Shown: positions 2,735 through 15,592 of the stretch, in pieces
Layout: each line of letters opens with the position of its first letter
How positions within the stretch are numbered: the stretch's first letter is position 1
From: Escherichia phage sortkaff
Sequence record: MN850581.1
Strand: one strand, 5' to 3'
Length of the DNA stretch: 42,446 nt
Translations under genes and position numbers: made by a program
The notes under the pieces: model-generated
What the model was told of the DNA's origin: nothing
The model's input: the letters and a program-made list of their open reading frames with translations, nothing else
The model's database searches: none

Positions 2735-2757
2735 CGGAGCCTAGTCAATCTGCATCA

Positions 2758-3138
2758 TCACCACTTCCTCCAGTCGGCAGGGTCGCGCGGGAGCTGCGCC
2801 AGGTCATGGTCCCACTTCGGGGCCTCGTCCGGCTTGCGGTAGCCGTCGTAAAGCATCTGGACCGCCGCGATCGGGTGAGCCGGGAGCGACTCATGGATGT
2901 ACAGATAGAACATGCCGCGCCGTCCCTCGTGGGTGATGCCGAAGCCGCTCCGGGTGTAGGTGTGGAGCGGCTGGTCGCCAGGTGCGGTCGGCATGGTGTC
3001 GGCGAGATACTGGATCGCGCTGGCGTGGAGTGGTGACGGCATCATGATTTGCGGCGTCCCTTCGGTCAGGGTGACGCGCTTGCCATCGTGCGGGCCTCCA
3101 ATCAGGAGCGCCTCGACTAAGTTTGCGGGGTGTTGCAT
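2758..3138 (-). CDS. hypothetical protein
   Basis: 126-aa ORF with RBS GGGAGGA 3 nt before the ATG. Confidence 0.65.
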   Translation of the reverse strand: MQHPANLVEALLIGGPHDGKRVTLTEGTPQIMMPSPLHASAIQYLADTMPTAPGDQPLHTYTRSGFGITHEGRRGMFYLYIHESLPAHPIAAVQMLYDGYRKPDEAPKWDHDLAQLPRDPADWRKW

Positions 3139-3573: not shown

Positions 3574-3625
3574 GGTGTTGTCTCTCGTCGGGTGGATGAA
3601 TGCCCCGTTGCCGGGGCGCTGGTGG

Positions 3626-3859
3626 TCAGACGCCGTAACGGTCGGCAAGGAAAGAAAACCAGTTTTCAAGGCTGGCGCGTTGTTTGGCTGAAATGCCGTC
3701 GCCGTAGCGCTCCACCATTTCCGCAAACTTGCCTTTGATTGCTTTGAGGCGTTCAGCGTTCACGAAGTACGGGCCGAATGCGTCAAACGCGAAGCCGGAG
3801 CGGTCGCCCGCGCGGTTAAGAATGTCTTTGATTTGTGCAACGGTGAATTTATTAGCCAT
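3626..3859 (-). CDS. hypothetical small protein
   Basis: 77 aa from MANKFTV...; RBS GGAGAAA 5 nt upstream of the ATG. Confidence 0.65.
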   Translation of the reverse strand: MANKFTVAQIKDILNRAGDRSGFAFDAFGPYFVNAERLKAIKGKFAEMVERYGDGISAKQRASLENWFSFLADRYGV

Positions 3860-3966
3860 TTTCGTTTCTCCTCTGGGGGTCGGCGATGTTGCCGCCCTAT
3901 GTGATATAAGATAAACACTTTCGGGCGGCATGTCCAGAGAAATATCACGAAAAGATTAAATTATTT

Positions 3967-10949: not shown

Positions 10950-11949
10950 ATGCGGTGACGGTGAGAGCGCAAGCCGTGGAGGTTGCAGTCTTTCCGCCCG
11001 CGTCAGTAACGCGGCAAGTGTAGGATCCTGCGTCGCCAGACGCCGCTCCGGTTTTCGTGAACGTGGCCGACGTTGCGCCGGAAACTGCTACGCCATCCTT
11101 AAGCCACTGATAGGTTAACGGGGCTACGCCGCCGGAAGCCTGCACAGGGCCGATCGAGATATTGCCACCAGTAGCGACGGAGGACGTCGCCGGGGGCTGC
11201 GTCGTAAACGCCGGGAGCGTGTTTAACGTCACGGCGCAAGCCTGAGACGTAACGGAGCCTTGCGGCACGGCGCTGTCCTTCACAATACACGTATACGTCG
11301 CATTGTCCCCGGTCGCGGCGGTTTTGGTATACGTGGCCGCCGTGGCCCCGGCGATGTTTACGCCGTTTTTCTGCCACTGGTAGGAGTACGGCGCGAGGCC
11401 GCCAGCCGCTGCGACGGTCAGCGTCAACGGGTCGCCGATGTAGACGGCTTTAGTCGGCGTCAGGTTGGTAGAGAGGGACAGGGCGACTTTGAGGCGGATC
11501 CGCTGGGAGTCCTTCGTCTGGCCCTGGCTGTCCGTCACGGTCACGTAATAGTCGCCGTTGTTGCTCGCCTGGTAGTTGGCGATCGCATAGCTCGGCGAGT
11601 TGGATCCGACGTTAACAGTCGTCCCGCCGGAGACTTTCTTCCACTGGTAGGACAGCGGAGCGATCCCCCCAGAGGCGGCGACGGTCAGCGTCTGCGTTGC
11701 GCCAGCCGCGACGAAGGTCGATCCGGCATCACCGCCAGCCACGCCGGGGAGGTCCTGCGTAAACACGATCGGAGGTAGCAGGTTCGGATCGTACTCGATG
11801 TAAAACATTTTCGTGGGGTCGAGGTTAGTCGGGTCAGCGTCTAACCAGATAAGATCTTTTTGCGGAGTCGCGCCGCTGGCCGGATCCTCGATCCGGGTGA
11901 CTTTCCAGCCCAGCAAGTCCGGGCGGTAGTAGCGATGCCAGTAACCCAT
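10948..11949 (-). CDS. protein with three tandem bacterial Ig-like domains after a 95-aa N-terminal domain
   Basis: 333 aa; three repeats of about 80 aa each containing P(L/Y)(S/T)YQW(K/Q/L)K and Y(Y/T)(V/C) motifs typical of Ig-like folds; RBS GAGGA; bounded by terminators on both sides. Confidence 0.8.
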   Translation of the reverse strand: MGYWHRYYRPDLLGWKVTRIEDPASGATPQKDLIWLDADPTNLDPTKMFYIEYDPNLLPPIVFTQDLPGVAGGDAGSTFVAAGATQTLTVAASGGIAPLSYQWKKVSGGTTVNVGSNSPSYAIANYQASNNGDYYVTVTDSQGQTKDSQRIRLKVALSLSTNLTPTKAVYIGDPLTLTVAAAGGLAPYSYQWQKNGVNIAGATAATYTKTAATGDNATYTCIVKDSAVPQGSVTSQACAVTLNTLPAFTTQPPATSSVATGGNISIGPVQASGGVAPLTYQWLKDGVAVSGATSATFTKTGAASGDAGSYTCRVTDAGGKTATSTACALTVTA

Positions 11950-12024
11950 AATTTTGTCCTCGTGGTGTGGCCGTGGTATAGTTCCCCGGCATTGTAGATC
12001 ATCTTTGGGCCGTAAACGAAAGGA

Positions 12025-12051
12025 GCCGCTTTTTAAGCGGCCCTTTTTTTT
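12025..12051. terminator. bidirectional hairpin terminator
   Basis: Stem GCCGCT-tttta-AGCGGC. Plus strand: followed by CCTTTTTTTT. Minus strand: hairpin follows the stop of the 33-aa ORF and is followed by a U-rich stretch. Confidence 0.6.
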
Positions 12052-12151
12052 ACAGTGCTAATGATACGGCGTAACCAATTGCGGCCCATGCTGCCGCGCT
12101 GGCGGCGATTACGGCCCAGATTACATAGCGGTGTCCGCGTAAGTCTTTCAT
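12050..12151 (-). CDS. putative 33-aa single-TM peptide
   Basis: MKDLRGHRYVIWAVIAASAAAWAAIGYAVSLAL; ATG overlaps the upstream stop (ATGA); immediately followed by a terminator. Not listed in the ORF track because it is short. Confidence 0.4.
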   Translation of the reverse strand: MKDLRGHRYVIWAVIAASAAAWAAIGYAVSLAL

Positions 12152-12543
12152 TTGAATTTCCCCTCTCTCTTGAATTTCATGATCCGCCCACGAAGGGACG
12201 GGACAGTTTTGCCTAACCAGTTGGCGACGTGCGCGTGGGTCAGCTCGTCCGGGACTACCACGCCGCGCCCGGTGGAGATCACCAGCTCGTCCAGGTCTGC
12301 CTCGGTCAGCTCGTGCTCCAGGAAGCGTAGGAGCCTGCTATCCTCCCCGGTGGTCCATTCCGTATAGGTCCGGTTGAATGCCAGCGACACGCCCAGCTCC
12401 GACGCCCGGACCTGCATCTGGCGGAAGTTGCGCCCGATTTTCTTTGCCAGCTCCTCGCGTGGCATGGTCCCGGCCAGGCGGATCAGCTCCGCGTCCTGCG
12501 CGTCAGTCCATCCGATAATTTCCGCTGTTACTTTACCCATCAT
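12148..12543 (-). CDS. hypothetical protein with two helix-turn-helix-like repeats
   Basis: 131 aa from ATGATG preceded by AAGGGGGA; the longer six-frame ORF (to 12840) overlaps upstream genes and its N-terminal part is Gly/Arg-rich, so is probably not translated. Confidence 0.6.
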   Translation of the reverse strand: MMGKVTAEIIGWTDAQDAELIRLAGTMPREELAKKIGRNFRQMQVRASELGVSLAFNRTYTEWTTGEDSRLLRFLEHELTEADLDELVISTGRGVVVPDELTHAHVANWLGKTVPSLRGRIMKFKREGKFK

Positions 12544-12734
12544 CCCCCCTTGAGGCGCTTTCTGTTTTTGGTGGCCGCTATGGCCTCTTTGAGCGTCGTC
12601 TCTTTGCCGCCGCCCGGTTGTACCCGGTCCAGTTTTGGGTCCGGCTGGTGGAGGAAGATCTCGCCCTCCGGTGTCTCGATCGATATGTCCGCGATCGCCT
12701 CTTTGCCAAAGACTGCCGACACTTTGCTGATCAT
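12540..12734 (-). CDS. hypothetical small protein
   Basis: 64 aa from MISKVSAV...; stop overlaps the downstream start. Confidence 0.4.
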   Translation of the reverse strand: MISKVSAVFGKEAIADISIETPEGEIFLHQPDPKLDRVQPGGGKETTLKEAIAATKNRKRLKGG

Positions 12735-12790
12735 GTCGTCCAGTCCGGCGGCCTGCGCCGCCTCCCATACCTCGCGGCGCGTACCCTGTT

Positions 12791-13027
12791 TTAACAATCT
12801 TTGTGGTCGTCCCACGGTCCGAAGCCTCCCACGTAGACAAATTCTCCGCCGTTCTCCCGGCGCTCCTGCCTGGCGTGATATGCCGCGTTCTGCCCGGTTC
12901 GTTTCTCCTGCTTCATTGCCTTGCAGGTCTTGGAACAAAAGCGGCCCCAGCCCCGTTTAAGGTCCGCCACGCGGACCTCGTGCATTTTGCCGCACCATTC
13001 GCACGGCTTGATTTTTTTAGCGGCCAT
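12791..13027 (-). CDS. hypothetical zinc-ribbon protein
   Basis: 78 aa with CEWCG ... CSKTC (C-x2-C ... C-x3-C); start overlaps the upstream gene's end. Confidence 0.55.
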   Translation of the reverse strand: MAAKKIKPCEWCGKMHEVRVADLKRGWGRFCSKTCKAMKQEKRTGQNAAYHARQERRENGGEFVYVGGFGPWDDHKDC

Positions 13028-13298
13028 ATGCTTTCCGTAATGCGTCGTTAGCGTTAGCCATCAGCTCGGCGATCTCGCGCTGCGTGGCCTTGTATGCCTC
13101 CGGGCCTGCGTACCACATGCGGAGGCGGTTGGTAAGGCACTGCGCGTTAAAGGCCAGTGTCTGCGCCTGGACCAGCATCAGGCGGCTAACTACGCGCGCT
13201 TTGTTTGTGCGGGCGAAAATGGTCCCCGGCTGGTCGCCCCAGTATTTGGCGCGGAGGTCTGCCAGTGTCTGGCCGTTTTTGTTGGTTGCTGTAGTCAT
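13017..13298 (-). CDS. hypothetical protein
   Basis: 93 aa from MTTATNK...; RBS GAGGAAAA. Confidence 0.6.
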   Translation of the reverse strand: MTTATNKNGQTLADLRAKYWGDQPGTIFARTNKARVVSRLMLVQAQTLAFNAQCLTNRLRMWYAGPEAYKATQREIAELMANANDALRKAYGR

Positions 13299-13329
13299 TT
13301 CGTTTTCCTCGCTGGTTGGTGTGAGAAAG

Positions 13330-13358
13330 AATATAACAAAGGATAAATGGGGCCGCAA
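13330..13358 (-). promoter_or_regulatory. sigma70-like promoter (-35 TTGCGG, 17-bp spacer, -10 TATATT) for the small-gene operon
   Basis: Minus-strand reading TTGCGG-ccccatttatcctttgt-TATATT; CGTGAT at 13377-13382 upstream; overlaps the 13-mer GTGAGAAAGAATA (plus 13321-13333). Confidence 0.4.
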
Positions 13359-13380
13359 GGATTATTTTAATTATTTCGTG

Positions 13381-13410
13381 ATAAAAGAGAAAAGGCCCCG
13401 GAGTGGGGCC
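13381..13410 (-). terminator. rho-independent terminator after the Dam operon
   Basis: Minus-strand stem GGCCCC-actcc-GGGGCC followed by UUUUCUCUUUUAU. Confidence 0.7.
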
Positions 13411-13415
13411 TGAGA

Positions 13416-14153
13416 CTAGCGGACGTTAGCGAGGAAGGTCGCGAGCGCGAAGCCCTCCGGGGTGGCGCTGCGTATGTTCTTTGTGCGGGTACTCGATCCG
13501 CCCAGCTTGGACCAGCCGGGATTATCTTTAGCCGCCGGGACTGGCTTCACCTCCGGCATAACGAAGCCGCCACCACACCAGATCCCGGTCTGCTTCGGAT
13601 AGGCATCGCGCGCCGGGTAGATCTCCGGGTATAGGCGGTGCTGGTGGTCGTCCGGCAAGTAGCCGCCGTAATGGTACGGGTGAAACCAGTAATCACAGGG
13701 CCGCCACATCGTCGAGAGCCGGGAGATCTTCGGATTCTCCAGCATCCACGGAACGGGCCGCGAATCGTCATAGCTGCCATTCTCATAGGCGGCGAAGTTC
13801 GCCACCTCCTCCACCATGCGAGCCAGCGCGACGGCCTTGTGTTGGAAGTACGGATCCCGCGCCCGTTTCAGCTCCCACCAGCGCGCCCCGGTGCAAGTAA
13901 GGTCGGTACACTCGGCAAACGAGGCGACAAACTCAATACCGGGGCCGACCTCCTCGACAATGGTCAGCGCCTCGATCTCGGTATGCTGCGCGTTAAACAT
14001 GCGCCCGACGCGGATAAGGTTCGGCTCCTGCGGGTCTGGGTGGATCCCGTCCTCGTGCTGGCCGTCATACATCCAGCATTGATAGCCAGCCCGGAGCCAC
14101 GGATCAACCATGATCCGCGTAAGGTTGAATAAGAATATCGCCTTACGCGTCAT
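13416..14153 (-). CDS. hypothetical protein, possible nucleic-acid-modifying enzyme (unassigned)
   Basis: 245 aa, aromatic-rich, with short motifs reminiscent of but not diagnostic for C5-methyltransferases (LENP, TPEGFALA). Translationally coupled to the upstream gene with a GAGG RBS. Confidence 0.7.
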   Translation of the reverse strand: MTRKAIFLFNLTRIMVDPWLRAGYQCWMYDGQHEDGIHPDPQEPNLIRVGRMFNAQHTEIEALTIVEEVGPGIEFVASFAECTDLTCTGARWWELKRARDPYFQHKAVALARMVEEVANFAAYENGSYDDSRPVPWMLENPKISRLSTMWRPCDYWFHPYHYGGYLPDDHQHRLYPEIYPARDAYPKQTGIWCGGGFVMPEVKPVPAAKDNPGWSKLGGSSTRTKNIRSATPEGFALATFLANVR

Positions 14154-14752: not shown

Positions 14753-15453
14753 TTAAATCAGGCTTTTGCCTGCGTACATCATTTCGGTAAGCGTTACGTA
14801 TTCCGTCTTGATCTCGCCGCGCTTGCGGGGCTTGATCAGGAATAAAACGGACGACTTCGCATTTTTGCCGCCAGGTTCCCCGGTCACGGCATCCACAAAC
14901 GCCACGCGCCCGGACGTCTCGCCGTCGCTGGTGATGTGGACAATGACGGACGCATGATCCAGCGCTTTCTTAAACCAGGCCGTAGAGGCGTCGGAGTTCA
15001 CGAGGAGGACCGTCGAGACGCCGCGCGTCTTTGCCTGCTCGATCGCTTTGGTCACAAACGGCATCGGCTCCGCGTATGGTGGGTTACACCACGCCAGCCC
15101 GTTCTCCGCGCCCCAGTTCACTTCGTCGCGGAGGGCGTTCGTCTCCTGTCCAGATAGCAGGCGCACAGGGCGTTAATCTTCTCGGCGGCCACGTCGATCC
15201 CAAACTCGCCGAAACGCTTACGCGCCCAGGCGAAAAGCCACTCCGGCGTCCGCCACTTCTGGCGCACTTTGTCCGGCGTCTTGCTGCCTTTGAAACGGCG
15301 ACCGCTCACGCGGTTCTCGTCGTCGGCCATGATCTCGTTAGTCGCTTTCTGGCCGATGGCCGCGAGCTGGGTCATAACGCCGGGGGCCACGCCATGCTCC
15401 GCGCCTGCCTGCTCCAGCATTTCGATCGTGCTCTTGTCGTTCTCGTATTTCAT
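14753..15453 (-). pseudogene. dam: phage Dam-type DNA N6-adenine methyltransferase (NPPY motif), interrupted by a frameshift
   Basis: N-terminal part (15118..15453, ...WRTPEWLFAWARKRFGEFGIDVAAEKINALCACYL) and C-terminal part (14753..15166, ...NWGAENGLAWCNPPYAEP...) lie in frames offset by one base. Frame switch must fall between plus 15121 and 15171; no slippery heptamer seen. Confidence 0.65.
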
Positions 15454-15512: not shown

Positions 15513-15592
15513 GAGGAAAATGTGATTTACTTGTGCTGTCTCTTTCCTTCGTCGGAAAAAATTAGCGCCCGCTGGTATCGGTCGCGCCCATT

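Follow-up and report, generated by a model that had tools for sequence, protein, structure and literature searches.

A compact, translationally coupled five-gene unit with a terminal membrane peptide in Escherichia phage sortkaff

Structure of the cassette

The DNA analyzed here is the 42,446-nt sequence record MN850581.1 of Escherichia phage sortkaff (genus Sortsnevirus), which we refer to as the window. Within it, five co-oriented open reading frames (ORFs) lie on the minus strand at positions 12050-13298, as a first-pass annotation of this DNA had described. An exact-sequence look-up identifies ORF1 to ORF5 as the GenBank genes sortkaff_29, _28, _27, _26 and _25, each labelled "hypothetical protein". 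The region is 98% identical to that of Klebsiella phage vB_KpnS_IME279 (IME279, also Sortsnevirus), 84% identical to Kosakonia phage Kc237 and 79% identical to Escherichia phage Sortsne, and its downstream half is also matched by six Murrayvirus genomes. Phages of the sortkaff group are lytic podophages of ~42 kb with 59% GC (PMC7552041; PMC8402661).

ORF1 (13017-13298) starts at an ATG and encodes 93 aa. It is overlapped by 11 nt (ATGGCCGCTAA) by ORF2 (12791-13027), which encodes 78 aa with a probable FCS-type zinc finger. These two lengths, and the 33 aa of ORF5, are as first annotated. ORF3 (12540-12815) had been given 64 aa from ATG 12731, and this was wrong; the start leaves a 57-nt gap after ORF2 and discards a conserved N-terminus. 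The 64-aa form is not found in the databases, whereas forms of 91 and 85 aa both are. The longer begins at GTG 12815, with a GGAGG sequence 9 nt upstream, and is the GenBank call. The shorter begins at TTG 12797, in a TTGTTAA overlap with ORF2, and the profile phrog_2817 covers its residues 1-84, with the family DUF7334 covering residues 3-31. In IME279 and Sortsne, both without ORF2, ORF3 begins at an ATG overlapping the ORF1 stop and reads MARKQGTRREVWEAAQ. For ORF4 (12148-12543) the 131 aa of the first-pass annotation are possible, starting from ATG 12543 in an ATGA overlap, but the protein probably has 130 aa from ATG 12540, the form annotated in relatives. ORF5 (12050-12151) encodes 33 aa and is coupled to ORF4 by an ATGA overlap, as had been claimed.

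Because ORF3 starts at GTG 12815 or TTG 12797, the chain of overlapping stop and start codons is complete; the chain proposed earlier stands with the corrected start and would be broken by the 64-aa call. The successive overlaps are 11 nt, 25 or 7 nt between ORF2 and ORF3, 4 or 1 nt between ORF3 and ORF4 (ATGA or TGATG) and 4 nt between ORF4 and ORF5. The genes thus have the features of a translationally coupled operon, being on the same strand with overlapping stop and start codons and terminators on both flanks, together with a putative promoter. Judged from their coding evolution all five genes are under purifying selection, with ratios of nonsynonymous to synonymous substitution rates (dN/dS) of 0.08-0.39 for ORF1 to ORF4 against closer relatives. 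On the evidence of sequence, the earlier description holds, in which the genes form a compact unit with coupled translation, signals of its own and a membrane peptide at the end.

Terminators and promoter

Intrinsic terminators on the minus strand flank the cassette. The upstream one, at 13411-13393, has a 7-bp stem with six GC pairs and, after it, a T run. It sits after a cytosine-methyltransferase-like gene, ending the methyltransferase operon, and its hairpin is kept in nine of nine relatives. It would insulate the cassette from read-through. The downstream terminator, at 12043-12023, begins 7 nt past the ORF5 stop and is a bidirectional hairpin with a 9-bp stem containing six GC pairs and a plus-strand counterpart at 12025-12041. 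It is near-identical in all relatives and in phages Skarpretter and C130_2. This terminator, GGGCCGC-loop-GCGGCTCCTTTCGTTT, is kept across Sortsnevirus, Murrayvirus, Skarprettervirus and Hungariovirus (window 11950-12049; locus L025 1368-1460; locus L014 3223-3311).

A putative sigma-70-like promoter lies upstream of ORF1 on the minus strand at 13358-13330. It comprises a -35 element TTGCGG (13358-13353), a 17-nt spacer and an extended -10 element TGtTATATT with its hexamer at 13335-13330, preceded by an A/T-rich UP-like stretch at 13361-13382. A consensus promoter scan made no call on the minus strand, because the -35 element matches just three of six bases. Sortsnevirus and Murrayvirus both retain the box TTATCCTTTGTTAT(A)TT...CACACCAAC between diverged flanks, and it occurs once in the window. 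The pattern CTTGNN-N16-18-TATNTT has only three sites in the 42-kb window, each leftward and intergenic, at 15513-15484, 13359-13330 and 2249-2220. All three lie in A/T-rich DNA upstream of leftward genes, and those at 15513 and 2249 share a 37-nt repeat of 84% identity, with ATCACGCTTCC in the spacer. By their pattern the three sites probably belong to one family of leftward promoters of the sigma-70 type, which may share an operator. The first-pass annotation gave the cassette its own promoter and terminator. The terminator is there and the promoter is a conserved box that would be active; with the box conserved, the three-site pattern and the terminators found, that description is reasonable.

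ORF4 is a putative D5-like helix-turn-helix protein

All five proteins were scanned against Pfam, NCBIfam, PHROGs and PADLOC. PHROG matches were obtained for ORF2, ORF3 and ORF4 only, and the NCBIfam and PADLOC scans gave nothing useful. ORF4 matches phrog_323, "transcriptional regulator, D5-like", with E = 1.1e-16 and 62.3 bits, the match being partial and aligning residues 8-127 with positions 145-260 of the 319 in the profile. Alignment of the ORF4 family with the D5 protein of phage T5 (T5.118) by hhalign gave a probability of 74% and E = 2.8e-5 over 105 columns, pairing ORF4 11-130 with D5 73-182. No T5-like phage was found by tblastn. According to the T5 record annotation and to McCorquodale 1979 (as cited in PMC12630848), D5 binds DNA, is needed for replication and late transcription, and takes part in early shut-off. 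Both proteins are built of tandem three-helix helix-turn-helix (HTH) units and both genes adjoin replication genes. The similarity is remote, however: D5 has 255 aa and more repeats, whereas ORF4 has two repeats in 130 aa.

The AlphaFold model of ORF4 is confident, with a predicted local distance difference test score (pLDDT) of 82, and consists of a bundle of three helices and another of four. It has the tandem three-helix HTH fold of Myb/SANT proteins, and both halves begin W-T-x-x-(E/Q)-D-x-x-L. In a Foldseek search of the model, tandem Myb proteins came top (CDC5L, Trichomonas Myb2-DNA and c-Myb R2R3) with weak E values of 0.2-1, and the matches also included the DNA-binding domain of GcrA and homeodomains. 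The eukaryotic R2R3 Myb/SANT proteins (c-Myb, Cdc5/CEF1, Trichomonas Myb2) are the best fold matches and share with ORF4 the W-T-x-x-E-D opening and the tandem layout. ORF4 differs from them in a 25-residue insertion in its second repeat and in lacking the tryptophan triad that classical Myb repeats carry at regular spacing, and it falls below the Pfam Myb thresholds. Its likeness to Caulobacter GcrA (PDB 5yiu) is limited to the DNA-binding domain; GcrA has a sigma-70-interacting C-terminal domain that is absent in ORF4, where the C-terminal half is the second HTH repeat.

ORF4 itself exceeds no Pfam threshold, with no match to Myb (PF00249, PF13921) at E up to 1 and none to GcrA (PF07750), and searches of PDB sequences with ORF4 and with profiles of ORF1 to ORF4 gave nothing significant. 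Close homologues of ORF4, in 27 clusters, occur only in these phages, and a locus search with the ORF4 alignment returned only close relatives. The family profile searched against 1.8 billion representatives found 647 proteins, mostly of 200-800 aa with 4-10 tandem copies of a ~50-residue unit, and relatives sampled from these exceed the Pfam thresholds for Myb_DNA-binding, Myb_DNA-bind_6, GcrA or Sigma70_r4_2. From the model and these matches we regard ORF4 as a two-repeat HTH protein of the Myb/homeodomain/GcrA DNA-binding-domain type, and as a putative D5-like DNA-binding regulator. In Escherichia phage vB-Eco-KMB41 (KMB41; locus L006) the ORF4 homologue (2748-3065) carries a shorter annotation of 105 aa as a "DNA-binding protein".

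ORF3 is syntenic with ORF4

ORF3 matches phrog_2817 over the full length of its 85-aa form (E = 2.1e-25). Against DUF7334 (PF24022) it scores 24.0 bits, just below the cut-off of 27, and close relatives carry precomputed PF24022 matches. Homologues of ORF3 were found in 48 phage records. We examined ten outgroup lineages bearing ORF3, using a hidden Markov model (HMM) of ORF4 (A1) to detect ORF4-like proteins. In six of the ten an ORF4-like protein follows on the same strand within ~2 kb, in Kc166B (E = 2e-14), C130_2 (gp16, E = 2e-11, annotated "D5-like"), Pantoea phage MED16 (gp41, E = 1e-9), Skarpretter (gp59, E = 2e-8), Klebsiella phage KLB16 (E = 3.5e-8, "DNA binding protein") and Serratia phage Smarc2 (E = 0.002). 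Stutzerimonas phage STP9 has the same arrangement by tblastn coordinates. Several of the outgroup ORF3-ORF4 pairs directly follow a Dam gene, and in KLB16, Smarc2 and KW1E_UTAR the ORF3 homologue abuts or overlaps it. By its synteny the ORF3-ORF4 pair is the conserved core of the cassette, and the two proteins may be functional partners.

ORF1 is basic and predicted to be helical, and Murrayvirus retains its core in the form of a 75-aa protein. It has no PHROG match, no Pfam match above threshold and no sequence match in the PDB. In KMB41 an extra gene of 107 aa (3621-3944) lies upstream of the ORF1 homologue, and the cassette seems especially prone to gene gain and loss at its head.

ORF2 is a sporadic, probable FCS-type zinc finger protein

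ORF2 had been called a zinc-ribbon protein, and a CxxC...FCSxxC pattern is indeed present as a C2C2 finger with C9 and C12 followed by F30-C31-S32-K33-x-C35. The family has an invariant core C-x2-C ... RGW-x-R-FCSK-x-C, plus a conserved GEFVYVGGFGPWDDHKDC tail. The C-x2-C ... F-C-S-K-x-C pattern is that of FCS-type fingers (zf-FCS, Polyhomeotic, E. coli YacG and Lar-type), but nothing there corresponds to the conserved elements RGW, QEKRTGQ and GEFVYVGGFGPWDDHKDC, and ORF2 lies below all curated cut-offs. Against zf-FCS (PF06467) it scores 11.2 bits (cut-off 22.4; E = 0.34), and five of 16 relatives match, the best with E = 8.5e-5. It reaches 17.4 bits against Lar (PF14354; cut-off 28.6, E = 0.0052) and 12.7 bits against YacG (NF002362; cut-off 79), so that neither threshold is attained, and it matches phrog_599 with E = 0.0025. 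The sole matches of the family profile in the PDB are the Polyhomeotic FCS finger (2l8e; E = 0.069) and YacG (E = 2.3-2.7).

ORF2 is present in Kc237, Kc166B and C130_2 and absent from IME279, Sortsne and Murrayvirus; its dN/dS against Kc237 is 0.10. Comparison of IME279 with sortkaff at this point reveals a clean indel of 234 nt (locus L001 3891-3901) with TAAA microhomology and flanks that are 98% identical, and stop-start coupling is kept on both sides of the event. The variants with ORF2 (91-aa ORF3) and without it (86-aa ORF3) share one 90%-identity cluster. We considered ORF2 a recent insertion into an IME279-like ancestor and revised this view, as Kc166B has a homologue at the same position, directly before ORF3, and C130_2 has one nearby. 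From this distribution an ancestral gene with repeated loss, or exchange by recombination, seems at least as likely as recent insertion. Unrelated phages carry other homologues in their early accessory regions, such as one beside an N-antiterminator gene. By its pattern of occurrence ORF2 is a dispensable accessory gene. At the position of ORF2 upstream of the ORF3 homologue, Skarpretter carries another zinc-finger protein (DUF3268, 132 aa; locus L025 248-646), to which the ORF2-family HMM has no match.

ORF5 is a conserved 33-aa peptide with a predicted transmembrane helix

The sequence of ORF5 is MKDLRGHRYVIWAVIAASAAAWAAIGYAVSLAL, with a basic N-terminus (MKDLRGHRY) and a single hydrophobic segment running to the C-terminus. 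The Kyte-Doolittle maximum over 19 residues is 1.78, in accord with the single transmembrane helix predicted earlier. There is no family match for ORF5 in Pfam, PHROGs, NCBIfam or PADLOC. A tblastn search of phages found nothing, owing to the low-complexity filter, and an unfiltered local tblastn found ORF5 in nine of nine relatives, in each with a length of exactly 33 codons. Across the two genera 19 positions are invariant, including two tryptophans and an LRG motif, and substitutions in the helix keep its hydrophobicity. Its dN/dS is 0.12-0.31 in frame and mostly >1 in the other two frames. The GC content at third codon positions (GC3) is 0.53, compared with 0.71-0.79 in neighbouring genes. 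The first-pass annotation noted that ORF5 was not in the ORF track. This is true of some RefSeq relatives, but the gene does carry annotations (sortkaff_25, sortsyn_19, Lumpael gp26 and others), and five relatives have it annotated independently.

ORF5 is absent from Skarpretter, C130_2 and Kc166B, and its occurrence confines it to Sortsnevirus and Murrayvirus. Since the same terminator directly follows the stop of the ORF4 homologue in Skarpretter and C130_2, and Kc166B has no ORF5, we take ORF5 to be a gene specific to its clade, sitting between ORF4 and the terminator. Single-helix membrane peptides include phage exclusion proteins, type I toxins and small regulators such as AcrZ and MgtS. 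ORF5 resembles these in size, basic N-terminus, single hydrophobic helix and position at the end of an operon, a likeness of class only.

Neighbouring genes

The cassette lies directly 3' of methyltransferase genes, including the cytosine-methyltransferase-like gene, with Dam and primase genes upstream and the gene for a three-domain immunoglobulin (Ig)-like protein downstream. The placing of the cassette between the Dam operon and the Ig-like gene agrees with these assignments. The Dam gene (14753-15453, minus strand) is split into two ORFs by a frameshift near 15147. ORF 15118-15453 corresponds to positions 1-47 of Pfam Dam and ORF 14753-15166 to positions 48-167; the split results from the loss of 1 nt that IME279 has (CTGGAC-AGGAG compared with CTGGACGAGGAG). 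Either the gene is a pseudogene or the sequence contains an error.

The Ig-like gene contains a 69-nt direct repeat (11368-11436 and 11635-11703, 77% identity, 267 nt apart) that corresponds to tandem Ig domains. Upstream of this gene, whose product starts MG(Y/F)WHRYY, there is a -10-like TACAAT with a poor -35 element, conserved in the aligned Sortsnevirus and Murrayvirus genomes. From its sequence this site looks like an activator-dependent late promoter.

Discussion

We think it somewhat probable that the cassette is a separately transcribed, coupled early or middle regulatory unit, with ORF4 as a DNA-binding regulator at the early-to-late switch, ORF3 as its partner, and accessory genes. 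ORF4 would bind double-stranded DNA through its two Myb/homeodomain-like HTH repeats and, by analogy with its apparent remote relative D5 of T5, would most likely act at the switch from early to late expression. ORF3 could be a cofactor or modulator of ORF4, and ORF1 would be a lineage-restricted helical protein. ORF5 would be anchored in the inner membrane by its tail and kept at a fixed ratio to ORF4 by the ATGA coupling; a role at the membrane, against a host target or in exclusion, is a guess by analogy with its class.

Several points weigh against this interpretation. We found no transcriptomic, proteomic, genetic or functional data for any sortsnevirus in the literature. No ORF4-like gene was detectable nearby in four of the ten ORF3-bearing outgroup lineages, and the model of ORF3 is mediocre (pLDDT 70) with no fold relative. 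A binding site for ORF4 was not identified, the promoter box being unique in the window. A second candidate, the AGATGATCTACAATG box upstream of the Ig-like gene, was rejected as a repeated regulatory motif; it is conserved, and of its three near-matches elsewhere two fall on the start codons of coding sequences.

The first-pass annotation suggested that the cassette might serve host takeover, superinfection exclusion or anti-defence as a module of small effectors. The genes are small and form an early-type unit. ORF2 is sporadic in the manner of accessory genes, with homologues in the early accessory regions of unrelated phages and sub-threshold similarity to Lar and to the gyrase inhibitor YacG, and ORF5 is a clade-specific membrane peptide of a class that includes exclusion proteins. 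However, the Lar and YacG similarities fail their thresholds and are largely a matter of cysteine pattern, and PADLOC-DB, with its known anti-phage defence proteins, gave no match to the five proteins up to E = 1, no dedicated anti-defence library being searched. Moreover, several genera keep ORF3 and ORF4 in conserved synteny, and ORF4 is predicted to be a DNA-binding HTH protein; its putative D5-like character is of an ordinary regulatory or replication-associated type for a phage, an outcome that the first-pass annotation had named as a refutation. An effector role for the whole cassette is thus unsupported, and we consider it unlikely. It may still hold for the two accessory genes ORF2 and ORF5 alone.

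The place of the cassette after methyltransferase genes, and of ORF3 homologues beside Dam in other phages, might suggest that ORF4 is a GcrA-like reader of methylation that times late transcription together with the phage Dam and cytosine methyltransferases. Several relatives of the ORF4 profile, and the KLB16 homologue, reach the Pfam threshold for GcrA. ORF4 itself does not match that family, it has a second HTH repeat in place of the sigma-70-interacting domain, Myb proteins and homeodomains fit it equally well, and the Dam gene of the window is frameshifted. We therefore regard a methylation reader as quite improbable. A broader proposal is still more of a long shot: a timing module made up of ORF3, ORF4 and ORF5 and linked to the methyltransferases, in which ORF4 would sense methylation or replication state and trigger late transcription, ORF3 would be a cofactor, and ORF5, a recent clade-specific invention, would tether or antagonize the regulator or exclude superinfecting phage. 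Finally, ORF5 might be a non-functional peptide, either a leader-like frame that modulates the terminator or a chance ORF. The closeness of the terminator stem to its stop and its lower GC3 are in keeping with this, as is a sub-threshold match to the Rfam family Trp_leader at 12016-12083 (22 bits compared with 41; E = 0.18), the only Rfam result in 11700-13700. The in-frame dN/dS leads us to reject the leader-peptide idea, and the invariant length and residues, the retained hydrophobicity and the independent annotations are similarly opposed to a chance ORF, making a non-functional ORF5 barely tenable.

Our preferred reading of the cassette as a regulatory unit built around ORF4 leaves it fairly ordinary, since all five genes were already annotated, albeit as hypothetical, and current understanding is otherwise unchanged. 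What is gained is better annotation. The selected 33-aa membrane peptide ORF5, overlooked by several RefSeq annotations, is documented. ORF4 becomes a candidate regulator of the early-to-late switch with ORF3 as its syntenic partner, giving a first functional handle on five "hypothetical" genes of the little-studied, high-GC podophages of Sortsnevirus and Murrayvirus and their relatives.

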